In this document: positions 3,560-15,142 of the stretch, piece by piece | How positions within the stretch are numbered: position 1 is the first letter of the stretch | How the letters are laid out: each line of letters begins with the position of its first letter | Source of the DNA: Peptococcaceae bacterium BICA1-8 | GTDB taxonomy: Bacteria; Bacillota; Peptococcia; Peptococcales; BICA1-8 | Assembly (NCBI GenBank): GCA_000802045.1 | Contig: JUEF01000030.1 | Location: 11,767 to 75,766, forward strand | DNA length: 64,000 nucleotides | Direction of reading: 5' to 3' | Notes under the pieces: generated by a model | Databases searched by the model: none | Seen by the model: only the letters and a program-made list of their open reading frames with translations | What the model was told of the DNA's origin: nothing | Made by a program: the position numbers and the translations under genes

Positions 3560-4018
3560 TTAGTCATTCAATCTAGTACTGTGATATTTTTCGCTTGAAC
3601 CTTCTAAAATGGAAGTTATTTTCTCTACGGTAATCCAATCATCCATATTACTCTGACGATTAAGTTTGAGAGTTTCAATAGTTTCAACATCTTTTATTTC
3701 TATTAGGCAAAGAATTTTTTTACCTGCCCAACGTTTTATTTGAGTATCAGTTAGGTTTAGTTTATTTTGATTTTCAGCAACTACCGCTTTTGATTCATCT
3801 TCTGTCATTTTTTCAGAATTAAATACGCTTTTAACAGTGGCTTTCGCATTAATTAATCCATTACCATTATTTTCAATAAAGTAAAGTGTTTCTCCTTCAA
3901 ATACTCTGCCATGAGGTAACTTTCTACCAGCTGCACCTCTAATAATCATTGTTTTTGTTCCATTTAAAATTTTTTCTAAAACCTTTGCTTTTGCATCGCA
4001 ATAAACTAAATGTTCCAT
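3560..4018 (-). CDS. ASCH/PUA-like domain protein
   Basis: 152-aa ORF. The N-terminal beta-rich segment (TMIIRGAAGRKLPHGRV..GETLYF) is typical of ASCH-fold proteins. This is a tentative call. Confidence 0.4.
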   Translation of the reverse strand: MEHLVYCDAKAKVLEKILNGTKTMIIRGAAGRKLPHGRVFEGETLYFIENNGNGLINAKATVKSVFNSEKMTEDESKAVVAENQNKLNLTDTQIKRWAGKKILCLIEIKDVETIETLKLNRQSNMDDWITVEKITSILEGSSEKYHSTRLND

Positions 4019-4440: not shown

Positions 4441-5358
4441 TTAACGCTCTATTCCGAACAAATCACTTACCGATTTGTGCTTACGATGTAACAGCCAGGC
4501 TACGATCATGCCAAAAATAAATGTGGAAGAAGCTGTCTCTATCATGTGACTAAAGCGTACGCTTGCAATCGGTATAAGCGGATTTTCCAAAATGTGACCA
4601 ATGTTCTGCGGGATACTAAAGAGCAGACCTACAAGGATAGCCGTCCACCAGGCATTGATCTTTGAGCAACGAATAACCGGAAGAGCGCACAATGTCCAAA
4701 GCATGGCACGAAGAATCTGGAAGGAAAATAACCCAGGATCTGTACGCAAGGTATTGGATGTATGCGTCCAAAAAGGCAGAATTTCTCCCGGGCTTCCATA
4801 AAAAGCTCGTAACTCTGGGTTTTGCCAGGCAATGAAATATCCAGCACTCCAATACAGGACAAGATAGGCCATAACGATAACGACCAACTTCAATGCCCAC
4901 TGTTTCACGGGCATGACAAGTGCTGGATTAGACACTGAATCAGCCTTTCCACGACCTTTACCCAAAACCAACACCCCCAGTGGGACAAAGAAGAACGCGA
5001 TCGGAAAACCCATCACAAACAAACGTGGTAAAAGTTGTGCTCCAACCGTAATATTAGAAAGGAAATACCATGTCTCGATTTGCATAATGAATGTTACTGC
5101 ACCGTAATAGGCAAAAGATAATCCCAAGGCTAGTTTCCAGCCGCTCCAACGTGAGCTCAGAACCAGCCCCATCACCAACAGCGTATTGACAATACTAATA
5201 ATTAACATGCCAGTTTCCGCCGATACAAGCCCTGGCTCTGATTTGATATTCGGTATCAGCCCCAAAACAGCCTGCGCTCCACCGATGAAGAAGACGTTGA
5301 ACAACACGACAAGTACAATAAAACGTAAAATCCAACCTAGAACAGAAAAAGCCTTCAT
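4441..5358 (-). CDS. polytopic integral membrane protein, unknown family
   Basis: 305-aa ORF with about 8 hydrophobic segments. It is visibly more GC-rich than its neighbours. The nested ORFs on either strand are artefacts. Confidence 0.6.
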   Translation of the reverse strand: MKAFSVLGWILRFIVLVVLFNVFFIGGAQAVLGLIPNIKSEPGLVSAETGMLIISIVNTLLVMGLVLSSRWSGWKLALGLSFAYYGAVTFIMQIETWYFLSNITVGAQLLPRLFVMGFPIAFFFVPLGVLVLGKGRGKADSVSNPALVMPVKQWALKLVVIVMAYLVLYWSAGYFIAWQNPELRAFYGSPGEILPFWTHTSNTLRTDPGLFSFQILRAMLWTLCALPVIRCSKINAWWTAILVGLLFSIPQNIGHILENPLIPIASVRFSHMIETASSTFIFGMIVAWLLHRKHKSVSDLFGIER

Positions 5359-5547: not shown

Positions 5548-6156
5548 TCATACCTTTTTGAGAATCATTCTAACACTGAAATATATCAATAAAAAACCAA
5601 CAGTAACATTCAAGATTTGTATTACATTATCCGCGAAAAACGTCTTAGCAAAGCTTCCGATTAAAGCAATTAACGTTAAAAAGAACATCGTCGATAATAA
5701 TGCTCCAAATCCAAATAAGTAAATGTCTTTTCTTTTCATGTCTTCTTCTGCGATTTTGGCTGAAAATACACCTGCCCAGAAAATTATTGTAAGGGGATTT
5801 GAAGCAGTGAGGATGATTGCAGTAGAAAATAAATTATTTGAATAATAAATATTCTGTATACTTAAGCTCGGCAAGAAACTAATATTAAATTGACTTAGAA
5901 CTGTGCTAAATCCAAAAATAAACAAGATGGCAGAGCCAAATATTTTTAAACTAAATTTTATATTTTTTTTCTCAATTATCGAAGCTATACCAAGAATAGC
6001 AGTAAGAATAAAAAAACCATCAATTAAAACAACACCTAATACCCCTGTTTCTGCAAAATAAAATCCTCTTAATGACGCCATTTGGAAAATAAAAATACAA
6101 ACAGGGCCTATTGCAAATTGTAATACCATTCCAAAATTGAAACCTTTAAAAATCAT
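5548..6156 (-). CDS. LysE family amino-acid exporter
   Basis: 202-aa, 6-TM protein with LysE-type organisation. It overlaps the upstream Lrp/AsnC gene by 4 nt. Confidence 0.75.
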   Translation of the reverse strand: MIFKGFNFGMVLQFAIGPVCIFIFQMASLRGFYFAETGVLGVVLIDGFFILTAILGIASIIEKKNIKFSLKIFGSAILFIFGFSTVLSQFNISFLPSLSIQNIYYSNNLFSTAIILTASNPLTIIFWAGVFSAKIAEEDMKRKDIYLFGFGALLSTMFFLTLIALIGSFAKTFFADNVIQILNVTVGFLLIYFSVRMILKKV

Positions 6157-6617
6157 TTTGCATAACTCTCAATATTAATATTTTCTTTTAAAGAGGAAAG
6201 AGCAATTATTGTATTTGATTTAAGTACACCTTTAATTTTCTTTAGAATATTTGATAAAAAATTTTCCAGGGATTTGGTATCTTCTACAAGTATTTTTAAT
6301 AAATAATCATATTCACCGACAACATGGTGGCACTCTAATACAGAATTACATTGAACAATAGATTTTCTAAAATCTTCTATATTCTCTGTTTTATCAATAT
6401 TGACAAAAACAAAGGCCAAAAGCTTGTAGTTGATTTTCTCTCTATTAATTTTTATTGTGTATTTTTCAATTATCTTTGCTTCCTCCATTTTTCTTATTCT
6501 TTCTGCTACCGCAGGAATGGAGAGGCTTACTTTTTTGCTTATTTCCGAAGTAGTTGCCCTGCTATTTTCTTTCAAGACATTAATAATTTTCAAATCAATT
6601 GTGTCCATAATAATCAC
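6153..6617 (-). CDS. Lrp/AsnC family transcriptional regulator
   Basis: LDxxDxKIL-type start (IDLKIINVLKENSRATTSEISKKVSLSIPAVAERIRKME), an HTH_AsnC plus RAM domain layout. Confidence 0.9.
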   Translation of the reverse strand: MIIMDTIDLKIINVLKENSRATTSEISKKVSLSIPAVAERIRKMEEAKIIEKYTIKINREKINYKLLAFVFVNIDKTENIEDFRKSIVQCNSVLECHHVVGEYDYLLKILVEDTKSLENFLSNILKKIKGVLKSNTIIALSSLKENINIESYAK

Positions 6618-7025
6618 CTCGTTTCTTAAATTAATGCTATTCTACACATTAGTTTAAATAAAGTAAATCTTTTCTTAAAATACATTAATATCTTAGGAAA
6701 TTCATGTTTTTACTTTCAATATTTAAACTTCATAGCATAAAATTTAGCATTAAACTTAAAAAACAGAAAGTGGCATTATATATTAGATATATCATATATA
6801 AAACCATAAGAAACTCTCAGAGGCAGACTCAGGTTGGGGTTGATGAGATAACAACCAACCAACTCTTCTAGACACAAGCCAAAATATAAAGGTAGTCTTA
6901 TCATTAGAACCATACAGTAAATGTGCTGTCTCAACCGTTCGTATAGAACTACTACAAATACACTTTGGCCAATGGCACCAAAGTAGCCCAAGTGCTACTT
7001 TTTTTTCGTAGTCTGCCGACTTTAA

Positions 7026-7245
7026 GATAACGTCCAAGCACTCACGACGCCGAGAGCCTTTGCTAGCTTACCCGGTATTGGAATAGGCTGTGGAAAGATT
7101 ACCGTACACCAGCTGGTCTGGCATTTTTTGGCCATGACTACTACGGCTTTCGCTTCCGGCATAATGTCCGCAGGATTGAAACCCGGCGGTGCTCAAGTAA
7201 AACGCTCCAAGGAAGCCACGCCCACTAGATCAGCCTGAAATTCTT
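7026..7245 (-). pseudogene. N-terminal fragment of an Fe-S oxidoreductase-like gene with an in-frame stop
   Basis: Frame reads FQADLVGVASLERFT*APPGFNPADIMPEAKAVVVMAKK. The ADLVG(V/I)A..ERF..AP.G..P.D..P.AK.V(V/I)V pattern is typical of N-termini in the epoxyqueuosine-reductase/reductive-dehalogenase-like Fe-S family. TGA at 7193-7195. No start codon. Confidence 0.4.
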
Positions 7246-7262
7246 TCTATCATGGATAATGT

Positions 7263-7952
7263 TCATAATCTTAAACACAAGGTTTTACTCTCACACTTTA
7301 TTTTTTTAACAAATTTCAAGTTAGATAATTCTATCGAACCTTCTAATTTGTTTTCACTAAATGGCCTAATTACAAAGCAGATTTCTCTAAACCCATTACT
7401 AGAATTAAATAAGTCTTTTAGCTTACAAAAAAAGATTGTTTCTGTAGGAGCTACAGGGATATTAATTTTATTTTCTAAATTTCCAAACTTCGCTTCAAGT
7501 ACAAAAGTTTTAATGTCTGTTGATTTACATTTAAAGCTCAAGTAGTATCCCTTATCATAATACTCTTCTAAATCATCGATACCTGTAATTACATAACTTA
7601 CCCAATTGTCTGAATTATCAGTGATATGATGATACTTTAATGCCAGTATGTTATTATTTGCGTATGCTTCAATTGTTCCTGGCAACTCATAACTAGTATA
7701 AATACCTCTTTTTTTGCCTAACCCATTTTCTATGTTAACTAACTTAGCTAATTCTAACGAAGTAAATTGAAAATCATCAAGTTCTCTTTCTTTTAAATTT
7801 TTAAATATTTCTCTTATACCACTTAAACTATTTAATATTTTTTTCTGAAATCTTTTAGAAAAAAAGAATACTACAGCCAGAATCATACTTAGAATCCCTA
7901 TCATATTAAGAAAAATACTACTTATATCACTAAATGATTTTAAAAAATGCAT
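7263..7952 (-). CDS. orphan membrane-anchored protein (N-terminal TM plus beta-rich domain)
   Basis: 229-aa AT-rich ORF with RBS AGGGGG upstream. No recognisable family. Confidence 0.5.
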   Translation of the reverse strand: MHFLKSFSDISSIFLNMIGILSMILAVVFFFSKRFQKKILNSLSGIREIFKNLKERELDDFQFTSLELAKLVNIENGLGKKRGIYTSYELPGTIEAYANNNILALKYHHITDNSDNWVSYVITGIDDLEEYYDKGYYLSFKCKSTDIKTFVLEAKFGNLENKINIPVAPTETIFFCKLKDLFNSSNGFREICFVIRPFSENKLEGSIELSNLKFVKKIKCESKTLCLRL

Positions 7953-7999
7953 TTTCTTTTCCCCCTATTTGTTATTAATTTTATTTATGACCCATAAGG

Positions 8000-8215
8000 A
8001 ATACCCTAGACGACTATTTCACATAACGATTGTGTTTTGCCGACGTCCTTGAGCCTTCAGGTGACCGCTCATGCCGGGGACCCTTTGGGTAAGCTAACAC
8101 GGGCACCGACTCGGTTGGTGAAAGGATGTGGCGCGCATGCCCCAAATCCCAGCTCAACGCGCCTTTACGGCAAAACTGGGTTATCGGATGGATGAGGCCG
8201 CAGCAAGAGCCGCAT
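8000..8215. other. GC-rich ORF-free structured segment (right-hand half of the split element)
   Basis: 9-bp long-range inverted repeat GTTTTGCCG (8034-8042) / CGGCAAAAC (8168-8176). Local hairpin GCCGC-ATGGAC-GCGGC. No credible reading frame. Confidence 0.4.
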
Positions 8216-8230
8216 GGACGCGGCGACCTT
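8216..8230. repeat. 15-bp direct repeat, copy 1 (GGACGCGGCGACCTT)
   Basis: 14/15 identical to 9030-9044. The two copies bracket the AT-rich two-ORF block. Confidence 0.8.
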
Positions 8231-8239
8231 TAATAGCAT

Positions 8240-8779
8240 TTATAAATCCAGTGTATTAAAAAATGCCTGTAGTTCCTCATTGCTTTTTTCATGCTTTATT
8301 CTATACTCATTAAATTCTTGTATAGGTAGGACAATCTTATATTTTTCTTGCTTAAAAATATTATTATTTCTTGTCGACACTATGAGCTTAAATTCAAAAT
8401 CGTTGATCCAATTAATTGTATTAAGATAATCCTCACGATTCGCACCTGATACTTCAAGATATATAATTAAAATCTTATTCACAGTTTTTTTTGGTTCCAA
8501 GACTATAGGGTATTTAACTTGCGTTTTGTGTTTCATAAATTCTAAAGGTGTAAAAATCTCTTCTTCAGACACAAAGTATTCCGTGAATTTGACATTAACC
8601 TTACTTAATAAAAATTCATCTTTAATTTTACTGAATTTTACTAATTCAACAATAATGTCTTCAATAATCCCAACATTATTACCAAAGTTATTAATAAACA
8701 AATTATAATTTACCATTAAATCAATATAGTTTTCTCCACAATCCTTAGCTTTAAAATGATATTGACGCAACGGAGACAC
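8240..8779 (-). CDS. orphan soluble protein
   Basis: 179-aa AT-rich ORF immediately downstream of the 66-aa membrane ORF. No recognisable motif. Confidence 0.45.
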   Translation of the reverse strand: MSPLRQYHFKAKDCGENYIDLMVNYNLFINNFGNNVGIIEDIIVELVKFSKIKDEFLLSKVNVKFTEYFVSEEEIFTPLEFMKHKTQVKYPIVLEPKKTVNKILIIYLEVSGANREDYLNTINWINDFEFKLIVSTRNNNIFKQEKYKIVLPIQEFNEYRIKHEKSNEELQAFFNTLDL

Positions 8780-8787
8780 ACTGACAT

Positions 8788-8988
8788 TTATTTCTGAGAA
8801 TTTTCAAGATATATTCTATAATTTGCAACAATAAATCCTATTAATAGAATTGCAGTAAATAAATATGATGGCAACTCAATATTTCCATAATATGTTATTA
8901 GCATTCCAATGACATCTAACCCTAGACATATAAGCAAAACACTATTTTTAATAATAAGTGACAAATAGGTAACTAATTTATTCATCAA
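8788..8988 (-). CDS. small two-TM membrane protein
   Basis: 66-aa ORF with two hydrophobic helices and RBS AAAGGAG upstream. Confidence 0.45.
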   Translation of the reverse strand: MMNKLVTYLSLIIKNSVLLICLGLDVIGMLITYYGNIELPSYLFTAILLIGFIVANYRIYLENSQK

Positions 8989-9029
8989 AAACTCCTTTTC
9001 TGTACTTTATTTAATAAACAGCCGTTACA

Positions 9030-9044
9030 GGACGCGGCGGCCTT
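9030..9044. repeat. 15-bp direct repeat, copy 2 (GGACGCGGCGGCCTT)
   Basis: See 8216-8230. Confidence 0.8.
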
Positions 9045-9890
9045 GCCTCATCTTTCCGAGTCATGGTAGACGCATCGGTTACCCGACGCACCGGGCTCCT
9101 CGAGAATACTCCCTTCCGTAATCGGCTATCATTAATAGCCTCTTGGTATTTTTCGCAGTGAGGTTGGCACCATTTATCCAGCCCTGCATGTCCGGTAGGT
9201 GTTTCCTTTGCAAATTGCGTATTCCCGTTAATCCCTTCCCCATGTAGCCGGCTCTCTCGACCTCATAGTAATATGGATTAATCCGACTTCCTATAGGTCT
9301 TCGGTCAGCCTCTTTGTCGATTGCACATTCCTACCAATAATATTTATATAACTGGAACCTATAGGATCTCCCAAGTTCCGGATACTTCTCTCCATACATG
9401 CCACGTTCTAGGACCCCGACAGACCCTCCAAAATCTCACCAATAGCGATTTTTTTGTATTACTTCCGTGACATTAAACACGTCGTCATCTGCATTTTCCT
9501 CTGTTTCCAGAGTCCACGGTTAACGGGGCTCAATTGTGCTTCAGGGATTACGGTCTCCCTTATGGCCTATATGGTTCTCTAGGTAAAGAATCTAAGCGAT
9601 TCACACAAAAACTAAAAAAAGGTTTTTGGTTCTCTGCTTATGTGTACATTCACCTAGCAGTTACCAGTTTCGGCGCAACACTCGATATGGGTGGCTGGTT
9701 AGGCCTTGCCCAACAGGGACTTTCACCCTGCAAGAAGTACCAAACTTCGCTTGGCGTACTAACGTTCCCGGCATTCCCGACGCTCACCAACCTTAACGCC
9801 TTACCCAATAGGGTGAGTGTGGTCCGGCATGCTACTTGATTAAACTATACCGGACCCGTAAGTGGGAATGGACGTGTTAGCCGGGGTAGC
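9045..9890 (-). ncRNA. GC-rich ORF-free structured segment, family unassigned (degenerate group-II-intron-like or other large ncRNA, or decayed DNA)
   Basis: About 0.85 kb with no credible ORF in six frames and many local hairpins. On the minus strand, GAGCCCGGU-GCGUCGG-GUAA-CCGAUGC (9058-9098) resembles a domain-5-like GNRA hairpin with an AGC base. GGGUGAAAGUCCC lies near 9717-9729. Confidence 0.3.
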
Positions 9891-9895
9891 ATCTT

Positions 9896-10684
9896 TTAAA
9901 AAGGTATATCCTCTTTTCGTATCAAAAGTGAATCTACAAGATAAGTAATATAGGCAGCAACTAAATTTAAAATCAGTTCCGCCTCAGTTTCTGTAACTTT
10001 GGATCCTTCAGGAGATGAATGTGCAACGCCCTGACTTTCACCCCGAAAAGCATATATTTTAATAATACTTTCAGTAATAGTGGGGGGAATATTGATTAAA
10101 TCCGATTTTTGGAGTTCCCGAATTGCCTTGGTAAAATTTACTGACGCCTTCTTACCCGTAATGATTTCTATACAAGACTCTAATGCACACATAGATTCCT
10201 TTACACAATTAGTTAAATCCGGAATAGGCTTTTCCCCGAAAAACTTAAGTGCCTTATTATAATGTTGCCTCACTAAATATAATTCGCTGTTGGAGAGGAT
10301 TGCCCCCATTCTCTTAATACTCTTCTGTGTATGTAGTCTTCCTTCTCTCTCAAACTGTCCATTGTTAAATCTATAATCTAAATTTTCTTCACATAACAAA
10401 TTATTAATTTCATGTGTAAAATACTCTTTTACTTCTTCAATAGATACTAATATCTGCATTAATTGGTTATCACGGACATCAGTTAAAAGTATTGCATATA
10501 TTCGTTCACAAAGTGAATATATCTTGTACCATTCTACACTTTGAAGCAACCAATTAAACTCATCTAGGTAAGTTTGAAAATTGTTATAGCCTTTTTCTAC
10601 CCGTCCAAGTCGATATAACTCATTAAGAACAGTTCCCCATGCCGAGGAGTTATTGTTTTCTGCAATATAACGCCGATGTACCAT
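9896..10684 (-). CDS. AbiJ-N-terminal-domain / HEPN-like (Abi_C-like) protein, possibly 5'-truncated
   Basis: 262 aa. The C-terminal FRGESQGVAHSS resembles the R-x(n)-H HEPN/Abi_C motif. The frame is open upstream (LFEKPISDDFPNTVRIGLSFIIED) but has no start codon there. Confidence 0.45.
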   Translation of the reverse strand: MVHRRYIAENNNSSAWGTVLNELYRLGRVEKGYNNFQTYLDEFNWLLQSVEWYKIYSLCERIYAILLTDVRDNQLMQILVSIEEVKEYFTHEINNLLCEENLDYRFNNGQFEREGRLHTQKSIKRMGAILSNSELYLVRQHYNKALKFFGEKPIPDLTNCVKESMCALESCIEIITGKKASVNFTKAIRELQKSDLINIPPTITESIIKIYAFRGESQGVAHSSPEGSKVTETEAELILNLVAAYITYLVDSLLIRKEDIPF

Positions 10685-11085
10685 ATCTTCAATGATGAAA
10701 CTTAAGCCAATACGGACAGTATTTGGAAAATCATCAGATATTGGTTTTTCAAATAATACTTGCTACAATCACCATTTTCCTAATTATTAGCTATTCTTCT
10801 TAATATTTCTATTTCCTTTAACAAATTTCCCCGTAATATCGACAATAATAAGTCACCAAAGGCTTTTTCACAATATTAGCATTTTAGAAAATAAATAACC
10901 TGAGTCCCCTATATTAAGTAAACTCAATAACTTTAGCTTATTAATTTTCAATAAAATATAGGGTTTCGCCCTTATATACTCTACTCTAATCTCTGAGGAC
11001 TTGATATATCCCAAAGTCAGTGATGTGGAAAATGTGCTAGTAAAAAGGGTGGATGGAGGTATTTAAATCTACTGAATTCTTATTC

Positions 11086-14503: not shown

Positions 14504-15142
14504 TTACTTATTATCTGAACCGGTAAACGCTGTAGCTACTCCTAAAGCTATGTAAATACTTCCTGTTATATATCGTTGAGCTTTTAAGTATGATGTTTTT
14601 CTCTTGAGCCATTTGCCTATACTTCCAGCTAGCAATGCAAATGATGTGTCTGTTAAAATTGCCAACATAATAAAGACTAGTCCAAGAAACATTATTTGTG
14701 CACTGGTACTTCCTTTTGACACATCGATAAATTGTGGTAAAAATGCTAAAAAAAACAAAGCAGTTTTTGGATTAAGGAGGTTTACTAGTATAGCTTTGTA
14801 AAAAACTACTGAGAGTTTGTTGTTCTTAATTTCATTATCATTACCCTCTAGCATCTCTTGTTTAATTAATTTACAAATACCTAAATATATTAGATAACCA
14901 GCACCAATAAATTTTATAATATTGAATGCGGTAGCTGATGCCATTAATAGTGCCGATATGCCAAAGGTTGCAGCTATTACATGGATAAAGCTCCCTAATT
15001 CTATACCTAATACAGCAATAATACCTGCTGATCGTCCTTGCTCTATACTCTGTGTCATAATGTAAATAATTGATGGTCCAGGAGTAATTAATAAAATCAA
15101 TGATGCTCCTGCAAACAATATAAGTGTAGTAATATCCGGCAT
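14504..15142 (-). CDS. LysE/RhtB family exporter
   Basis: 212 aa, 6 TM, N-terminal LTPGPS motif typical of RhtB/LysE translocators. Confidence 0.85.
   Translation of the reverse strand: MPDITTLILFAGASLILLITPGPSIIYIMTQSIEQGRSAGIIAVLGIELGSFIHVIAATFGISALLMASATAFNIIKFIGAGYLIYLGICKLIKQEMLEGNDNEIKNNKLSVVFYKAILVNLLNPKTALFFLAFLPQFIDVSKGSTSAQIMFLGLVFIMLAILTDTSFALLAGSIGKWLKRKTSYLKAQRYITGSIYIALGVATAFTGSDNK

Follow-up and report, generated by a model that had tools for sequence, protein, structure and literature searches.

In this work, we examine a 64 kb stretch of the metagenome-assembled genome (MAG) of Peptococcaceae bacterium BICA1-8, the whole of which we call the window, and we focus on an islet of small genes found on its minus strand at 6776-10762. 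This islet is probably a fossil cassette array of the integron type, of the kind termed CALIN (integrase-less cassette array), and it carries a dead group II intron devoid of any complete open reading frame (ORF). CALINs are defined by at least two attC sites with no intI gene nearby, and Firmicutes were reported to harbour CALINs and no complete integron (PMC4889954). The array would consist of three unrelated, promoter-less, single-gene cassettes and of a fragment of a fourth gene, the AT-rich parts being the cargo and the GC-rich parts the attC sites and the intron. Along the minus strand, one successively meets a truncated AbiJ-like cassette, a first attC site (attC1) with the intron at its R' box, a frameshifted cassette encoding a protein with two transmembrane helices (2TM), a second site (attC2), a cassette for a protein of 229 aa, a fragment of an iron-sulfur (Fe-S) protein gene and half of a third site (attC3). 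An initial annotation of the same DNA had seen here an accessory islet of orphan genes, possibly a defence or abortive-infection hotspot, embedded in a decayed Fe-S gene region and matching no system that could be named. The organisation can in fact be named, and a false lead is thereby removed, the locus being a decayed array of independent units and not a new multi-gene defence system.

The attC sites and the composition of the islet

The four ORFs initially listed are all present on the minus strand, and they encode proteins of 262 aa (10684-9896), 66 aa (8988-8788), 179 aa (8779-8240) and 229 aa (7952-7263). As was first described, AT-rich genes alternate with GC-rich pieces, the GC content being 0.26-0.34 in the genes of the islet against 0.45-0.58 in the spacers, for a mean of 0.37 in the window. 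The flanks are also those that had been recognised: LysE and Lrp/AsnC genes border the islet at one end, and WG-repeat/PD40 lipoprotein-like genes do so at the opposite end. The idea of a foreign accessory islet marked by a compositional break is supported. No part of the 6600-10000 region is repeated elsewhere in the window.

The spacers owe their identification to a covariance model, termed R2, which was built from 14 aligned attC sites of the L008 array only, hence from one array type, and whose E-values are rough. This model re-finds the attC sites of the independent array L014 (E-values from 3e-8 to 0.45). Over both strands of the whole window (128 kb), it matches attC1, attC2 and, weakly, the 7068-7025 segment alone, all three on the strand of the genes and each downstream of an ORF. 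The attC1 site (9757-9882, minus) scores 25.8 bits (E 2.7e-5 for the whole window; 25.4 bits with filters off) and attC2 (8021-8186, minus) scores 19.7 bits (E 1.6e-3 for the whole window, 1.5e-4 over 12 kb with filters off). In this last setting, everything else scores at most 10.5 bits. An earlier model, R1, drawn from the attC sites of L014, was left unused because RNAalifold gave no pairs and MAFFT misregistered two attC subtypes.

Both sites display the R''-L''/L'-R' architecture (RYYYAAC and GTTRRRY), with R' cores relaxed to GTTAKNN as in L008. In attC1, the R'' box GGCTAAC (9882-9876) answers an R' box of which GTTA (9763-9760) is completed by TCG (9059-9057) after removal of the intron, and the boxes then read GGCTAAC..ATTCCC / GGGAAT..GTTA|TCG. 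In attC2, the R'' box CGATAAC (8186-8180) and the L'' box GTTTTGCCG face the L' box CGGCAAAAC and the R' box GTTATGT (8027-8021), itself followed by GAAAT. The central parts of the two sites and their R'+GAAA flanks resemble those of the attC sites of L008, L059 and L073. They lie 1.6 kb apart on the same strand, which is what is asked of a CALIN (at least two attC within ~4 kb). The third site (7025-7095, minus) is a remnant of which only the 3' half is left, with an L' box GGCGTCGTGAGTGC and an R' box GTTATCT followed by TAAAG; about 45 nt of it are ~85% identical to the 3' half of the attC of L059, and it fits the 3' consensus of L008.

No recombinase was found among the ten ORFs scanned with Pfam nor by tblastn with a Xer-like query over the 64 kb, a search that left out an IntI-specific profile, pseudogenes and the rest of the MAG. 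It is because no integrase was found in the window, together with at least two attC sites, that the array fits a fossil of the CALIN type. As in the published CALINs (PMC4889954), at least two attC sites in the same orientation are found within 4 kb, each after a short promoter-less ORF of unknown or accessory function, and no intI was found nearby. The array differs by its heavy decay, with a first cassette that is truncated, a second that is frameshifted, a half attC and an intron remnant, and by attC sites that are long (125-166 nt) and GC-rich within an AT-rich Bacillota genome. It would document such long GC-rich sites in an AT-rich member of the Bacillota (Peptococcaceae), a phylum reported without complete integrons.

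Two related arrays help to understand this locus. L008 (15 attC; JGI 3300053034) and L013/L014 (13 attC; GCA_002841375.1, PGZO01000043.1) are long arrays of small ORFs on the same strand, at least one of which belongs to a series of Firmicutes MAGs, and no integrase was seen on the stretches that we fetched. Behind every ORF of the L008 and L014 arrays stands a conserved imperfect palindrome, ..YTAACAA..//..AACGTTAKNN, which is the attC site. The cargo of L008 and L013/L014 includes toxin-antitoxin pairs (HicAB, ParE/Phd, Gp49/HTH and Fic/DUF2281), acetyl- and methyltransferases, NUDIX proteins and AbiJ_NTD4 cassettes, one of the latter being held by L013/L014 itself.

The cassettes and their cargo

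The first cassette (gene at 9896-10762, minus) bears out the resemblance to AbiJ that had been noticed in the 262-aa protein. This protein matches the PADLOC profile PDC-S32 (PDLC04997; E 1.3e-33) over positions 78-280 of 285, where the intact homologues match it over 7-279, and AbiJ_NTD4 of Pfam just under the gathering score (31.9 bits for a cutoff of 34; E 2e-7). The matches to Abi_C of Pfam (14.4 bits for a cutoff of 24; E 0.04) and to AbiJ of PADLOC (E 0.008) are weak, and no relative was found in the PDB. Fourteen homologues of 283-319 aa were found, which start as M..PF.QR.G. Their alignment (A6) reveals that the in-frame homology extends 26 codons upstream of the ATG at 10684, up to 10762, beyond which stop codons are found. 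No start codon exists within this upstream stretch, and compared to its homologues the gene lacks the start codon and ~16-20 N-terminal codons.

The conserved C-terminal half is retained in the 262-aa ORF, including the invariant R240...H248 and EAEL residues. As in AbiJ and PDC-S32 proteins, a predicted AbiJ_NTD4-type N-terminal domain appears to precede a putative Abi_C/HEPN-like region with a conserved R...H motif, the differences being the missing N-terminus and the scores mentioned above. The motif of this family is RG..QGVAH, i.e., R-x7-H, whereas the classic HEPN motif is R-x4-6-H. From these profile matches, the product is best seen as a member of the PDC-S32 family, AbiJ-like and of the HEPN type, and as a candidate for abortive infection. 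PDC-S32 is itself a PADLOC candidate single-gene system for which we found no paper giving an experimental validation.

The second cassette (8240-8988, minus) had been read as two genes, for a 66-aa and a 179-aa protein. It is a single gene for a ~246-aa protein. The 11 distinct homologues obtained with the 179-aa query (P0003-P0013) span both ORFs and are all single proteins of 232-254 aa in which the transmembrane and soluble parts are fused. The split results from a 1-nt deletion near 8796, and inserting one C after TCT restores ..YLENSPEINVSVSPLRQ..; the same frameshift is present in another assembly of the locus (L001). The model of an intact relative (pLDDT 80.9) has 2-3 N-terminal transmembrane helices, an Ig-like beta-sandwich and a C-terminal helix; its matches in the PDB are generic sandwiches only, and one of the fold labels predicted for the protein is that of an Ig/LEA-2-like sandwich. 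A PADLOC match of the 66-aa ORF to a "4TM effector" (E 7e-4) was discarded as spurious, since the intact homologues do not reproduce it.

The relatives of this 2TM protein are found beside a Gabija-like pair (AAA_15/OLD-TOPRIM and UvrD), and also in an island with an integrase and FRG, DarT/NADAR (DarTG) and AIPR genes. No attC sites were seen around the homologues in L003 and L006, and the integrase of L006 is Xer-like and falls under the IntI cutoff. At 9051-9028 and 8232-8190 (minus), cassette 2 is also bracketed by a 15-nt direct repeat AAGGYCGCCGCGTCC and by a perfect 8-nt inverted repeat GATGAGGC/GCCTCATC. In L073, L123 and L129, comparable GC hairpins with a (G)TCC(A)T loop are found immediately 3' to where the intron is inserted.

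The third cassette (7263-7952, minus), which has no attC of its own, encodes the 229-aa protein, made of an N-terminal transmembrane helix and a predicted CBM-like beta-jelly-roll (model with a pLDDT of 87.5; Foldseek matches to CBM11, CBM30 and CBM4, E 1e-7 to 1e-5). A word-indexed search with this protein returned only itself, and an exhaustive HMMER scan of 1.84 billion representatives yielded 8-9 relatives, the best being 50% identical. Its core aligns over its full length with these relatives and appears intact.

It had been proposed that the 229-aa protein and the 66+179 pair were paralogous effector modules. A BLASTP E-value of 0.4 and an hhalign probability of 0.7%, together with predicted folds that differ (a CBM-like jelly-roll against an Ig/LEA-2-like sandwich), indicate that they are not paralogues and that only a general layout is common to them. 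Neither of these two membrane-anchored beta-sandwich proteins has a match in PADLOC. As for the orphan status first given to these proteins, homologues exist for all of them (11 for the 179-aa, 14 for the 262-aa and 8-9 for the 229-aa protein); they are rare, and the proteins are thus not strict orphans.

The Fe-S gene that gave the region its first description is real, but it is reduced to ~120 nt between the 229-aa gene and the attC3 half-site, the other GC-rich parts being attC sites and the intron. The fragment (7124-7246, minus; ~41 codons) comes from the N-terminal part of a gene for a QueG/RdhA-like 4Fe-4S protein, and by tblastn to metagenome loci it is 56-70% identical over 36-41 residues to the N-termini of the family, e.g., ADLVGVASTERFDGAPPGHRPEDILAGAKAVVVCARR. 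These relatives were recovered with a degenerate DNA pattern for DLVGVAxxERF, and the identity reaches well past this seeded motif. The full-length relatives are 220-350 aa long with C-terminal Fer4_16/Fer4 domains, a part that the window lacks. Some 15 initial codons of the gene and everything beyond the fragment are lost, and the in-frame TGA that had been spotted replaces a conserved Gly. The fragment itself had no match in Pfam, the PDB, plasmids, the fetched loci or an exact 8-mer peptide scan of metagenomes.

Two of the three families are found as cassettes elsewhere, the close homologue P0019 of the 262-aa protein in the 15-attC array L008, and P0030, the closest homologue of the 229-aa protein, in the 13-attC array L013/L014. 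The 2TM relatives sit in defence islands and not in arrays. Integron cassettes are known to encode phage defence systems (bioRxiv 10.1101/2024.07.02.601719). Our array resembles these in having small single-gene functions of the defence type as cassettes, a function that is here predicted, and it differs in that two of its three genes encode the unknown sandwich proteins without PADLOC match. The defence flavour of the locus is thus real but indirect, coming from the PDC-S32/AbiJ-like membership, from the defence-island neighbours of the 2TM family and from the published defence cassettes. Three very rare families (PDC-S32/AbiJ-like, 2TM Ig-like and membrane-anchored CBM-like) are in this way tied to the integron/defence-island gene pool. 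Because of this link, the intact P0016, P0003 and P0030 are better candidates for a phage challenge than the alleles of the window.

A group II intron at the R' box of attC1

The structured RNA-like DNA suspected in the GC-rich pieces is a group II intron of 700 nt (9060-9759, minus), in the same orientation as the cassettes. The Rfam family RF02005 (D1-D4) matches it at 9723-9404 (minus) over the full model (1-225) with 83.1 bits for a gathering score of 49 (E 1e-21). Its insertion site is GTTA|TCG, in the attC1 top strand. The intron starts with GUACG (GUGCG or GUACG in its relatives) and ends with CUACCAUGAC, an A standing 7 nt before the end; this agrees with the boundary features that one looks for (5' GUGYG, 3' AY, a bulged A in domain VI and an EBS1-IBS1 pairing between exon- and intron-binding sites). 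Nine relatives are conserved up to ..CUACCGUGAC (..CTACCGTGAC) and diverge right after, which places the 3' end at 9060, and the exon join GTTA|TCGGAAAG is exactly the R'+GAAA context of L008. The candidate EBS1 loop UUUAAUGU (UAAUGU; UUUAACGU or UAACGU in relatives) is complementary to the exon ACGUUA. Two other delimitations were ruled out by the comparison with these relatives, which end the intron at ..CUACCAUGAC (9060): one in which the 66+179 genes were cargo of intron domain IV (with a GATGAGGC/GCCUCAUC stem), and one with a 3' splice site at 9024 (join GTTA|GGC).

The copy of the window is heavily damaged. Of its intron-encoded protein (IEP), approximately the first 30 codons are left (54-aa ORF, 9243-9079), so no reverse transcriptase (RT)/maturase is present, and Pfam found no IEP remnant in stop-masked translations of the GC-rich pieces. 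No other copy has the 60 AT-rich nucleotides that are inserted here at 9640-9581. At ~9087/9086, a deletion of ~35 nt has taken away the loop of domain V together with its 3' strand, and the 5' strand GAGCCCGGUGCG is left. This deletion is unique to the window, domain V being kept in six ORF-less relatives (alignment A7) and in L012. No match to RF00029 was obtained in this intron, even at E<=5, and a regex scan for a canonical domain V returned noise only. Blastn of the intron region against plasmids gave one irrelevant match of 91 nt. Domain V is the catalytic centre of group II introns, and from the loss of half of it we infer that this copy is unable to splice.

Better preserved relatives of this intron exist. 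L012, a contig with another AbiJ-like homologue, carries a collinear intron with a 448-aa RT/maturase (TIGR04416, 365 bits) devoid of an endonuclease (En) domain, and both introns start right after ..ACGTTA, the L'-spacer-R' end of an attC site. The window copy belongs to an ORF-less family with identical IEP-deletion breakpoints, whose other members, of 655-672 nt and with intact domains V and VI, are found in several Bacillota MAGs, always after ..CGTTA (L023:2208-2869, L029:3155-3810, L059:3104-3759, L068:1083-1754, L073:1305-1966 and L077:167-839). By their sequences, these look like propagating non-autonomous derivatives of an IEP-bearing intron of the L012 type.

The junction between the R' box and the intron's 5' end can be followed much further. 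In the species-representative genome collection, at least 119 contigs contain the corresponding 16-mer CGTTAGTRCGCCAAGC; they belong to Bacillota, Desulfobacterota, Gammaproteobacteria, Bacteroidota, Chloroflexota and others. Of the 80 junction loci that were fetched, 8 have an R2 match whose end coincides with the junction, a proportion to be read knowing that R2 detects Bacillota-type attC sites only. All 18 credible R2 matches in the related loci are on the strand of the intron, as are the cassette ORFs of L059 and L073, and 8 of the 18 loci tested have a match to RF02005 after the junction. Two counters of TAAC...GTTA hairpins were also tried and then dropped: the first favoured the junctions, 33 of 80 having strong hairpins compared to 39 of 316 control sites, and the second, expressed per kb, found no difference (~0.19 against a background of ~0.15). 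Since R2 is restricted to Bacillota-type sites and the hairpin test was uninformative, a general association with attC is only a possibility. Among single loci, textbook attC hairpins are found directly upstream of the junction in L021, L024 and L025, the last also having a match to sRNA-Xcc1 (RF02221). In L073 (2069-4108), a 679-aa ORF lies ~100 nt past the ORF-less intron and is followed by a strong attC (61 bits), which makes an unusually large cassette.

Stem-loop or attC targets are known for class C introns only (PMC4424553). The group IIC-attC introns, such as S.ma.I2, target the bottom strand of attC, which they enter at TTGT/T in R'', and their orientation is the reverse of that of the cassettes (PMC3001079, PMC7923331). 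The intron of the window and its relatives are like them in being En-less, in their class-C style, in their insertion directly after the attC stem-loop and in a short EBS1-IBS1 pairing; a class C affiliation is given here by likeness. They differ by their place at R' (..ACGTTA|N) of the top strand and by sharing the orientation of the cassettes, and the window copy also in that it has neither ORF nor complete domain V. Two other introns are rare cases placed in the attC top strand or just downstream, in cassette orientation: UHB.I2, which is a IIB intron (PMC7923331), and the unusual IIC intron that was described in an Enterobacter cloacae integron (Rodriguez-Martinez et al. 2012, as cited in PMC7923331). 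Likened to them by position and orientation alone, our intron differs by a junction that recurs in at least 119 contigs and by the existence of an ORF-less derivative family.

We tentatively consider that these introns may form a widespread and apparently undescribed class-C-like lineage that is specialised on the attC top strand, where it inserts in sense at R' (..ACGUUA|N), 3 nt inside the downstream cassette, and that has spawned ORF-less derivatives of ~660 nt. If this is the case, such sense-oriented introns could splice out of cassette transcripts, ride arrays without polar effects and move with the cassettes. A family of sense top-strand attC introns spread across many phyla would alter the picture of the interplay between introns and integrons.

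Alternative explanations

We must consider that the mosaic could be an artefact, or that the spacers could be something else than attC sites. That an assembly chimera of the metagenome bin would have produced it is conceivable, as the source is a MAG and as a second assembly, L002, breaks at 9661, inside the intron. The mosaic shows no obvious chimera, however, for three assemblies are 100% identical: the contig L001 of the JGI over 18234-8235, which spans attC1 with its intron, the frameshift and the beginning of attC2, and L002 over 17063-9661, the MAG contig at the NCBI being 106 kb long. We therefore deem a chimera extremely improbable. The GC-rich spacers could also be unrelated structured elements, such as REP-like repeats, terminators or small RNAs, whose likeness to attC would be coincidental. 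Imperfect TAAC...GTTA palindromes are indeed common in AT-rich DNA, and the crude hairpin counter could not tell arrays from the background; the first attC alignment yielded no consensus pairs with RNAalifold, and the score of attC3 is within noise. Against this, a model made from the array of another organism picks exactly attC1 and attC2 from 128 kb (with default filters, the next best reaches 8.7 bits), and the position and strand of both sites are those that the ORFs would lead one to expect. Their central parts and flanks are those of attC sites of other arrays, and homologous genes are cassettes elsewhere. Coincidence is thus very unlikely.

The cargo has been given two other readings. 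The initial annotation grouped the four ORFs into one working abortive-infection or defence system, composed of a HEPN nuclease and of paralogous membrane-anchored effectors. The genes are all on one strand and closely spaced, one belongs to a candidate anti-phage family, and the 66+179 homologues lie beside Gabija-like genes and in a DarTG/AIPR island, so part of the defence idea stands. The attC sites separate the genes into mobile units that are independent of one another; one gene has a frameshift and another has no start, so that two of the three cassette genes are damaged; and the supposed effectors share neither sequence nor profile similarity and differ in their folds. The annotation had itself held that genes never co-occurring in other genomes would speak against a system, and since the homologues of the three families are never found together as a set in the contigs that we examined, the system hypothesis fails by its own test. 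We regard it as highly improbable. A less remote reading accepts the origin as a cassette array and considers the cargo still live, with an AbiJ-like protein shortened to the ATG at 10684, a working pair of 66 and 179 aa and a functional 229-aa protein, in a defence or cell-surface hotspot. The retention of the whole conserved C-terminal half of the AbiJ-like protein and the full-length core of the 229-aa protein speak for it, as do the sigma-70-like hexamers of the region (33 observed for 17 expected). The loss of the N-terminal AbiJ_NTD4 part, in a homologous upstream stretch devoid of a start codon, the fusion of the two parts of the 2TM protein in 11 of 11 homologues and the dead intron between cassettes 1 and 2 oppose it, and we find this reading rather unlikely.

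We thus retain the fossil CALIN with its dead intron, against which several points must be weighed. Only two attC sites are statistically solid, the match at 7068-7025 being within noise by its score (8.7 bits), and the model behind them derives from a single array type with rough E-values. No attC or attI was found upstream of cassette 1, and the search for an integrase amounted to ten ORFs with Pfam and one Xer-like tblastn query. The frameshift may be tolerable in principle, as a split protein or through recoding, the loss of splicing is deduced from the missing domain V, and a single community sample may underlie all three assemblies.

Proposed formation, decay and significance of the array

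By analogy with known integrons and group II introns, a scenario can be proposed for the history of the locus. An integron integrase would have recombined folded attC sites at G|TT, stacking the cassettes, which would have been transcribed by read-through from upstream. An ORF-less intron, mobilised in trans by a reverse transcriptase like that of L012, would then have entered the attC1 top strand, in single-stranded form, by reverse splicing immediately behind the hairpin, possibly guided by the pairing of EBS1 with ACGUUA. Because of this insertion right after the hairpin, the intron would lie 3 nt inside the next cassette, in sense, from the transcript of which an intact copy could splice.

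The array is now decayed and immobile: cassette 1 is truncated on the 5' side, cassette 2 carries a frameshift, the attC of cassette 3 is gone, attC3 is a half-site and half of domain V is lost. At most the 229-aa protein, and perhaps an N-terminally shortened AbiJ-like protein, could still be produced. The locus is a new member of known things, namely CALINs, cassette-borne candidate defence genes and attC-associated group II introns.

Neighbourhood of the array

A few other features surround the array. Two LysE-family transporter genes on the same strand (5548-6156 and 14504-15142) bracket an 8-kb stretch that contains the array and two lipoprotein-like genes, and this pair may mark a duplication or insertion boundary. 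Beside the islet, a multi-pass membrane ORF of 305 aa without Pfam match (4441-5358, minus) has a GC content of 0.45-0.48 for ~0.30 on either side, and this gene, too, may be foreign by its composition.

Just past the attC3 half-site, at 6961-7001, overlapping terminator-like hairpins are found on both strands (e.g., AAAGTAGCCCAAGTGCTACTTT followed by T8 on the plus strand), and the transcript of the array, or a gene that was once its neighbour, may have ended there. At the other end, just upstream of cassette 1, a fragment of 13 codons (39 nt; 10944-10982, minus) resembles codons 38-50 of a 152-aa ORF without Pfam match (3560-4018, minus), with 85% identity over 13 aa by tblastn (E 0.006) and 82% over 39 nt by blastn (E 1e-4). 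It may be the remnant of a further lost unit or the product of a local duplication.

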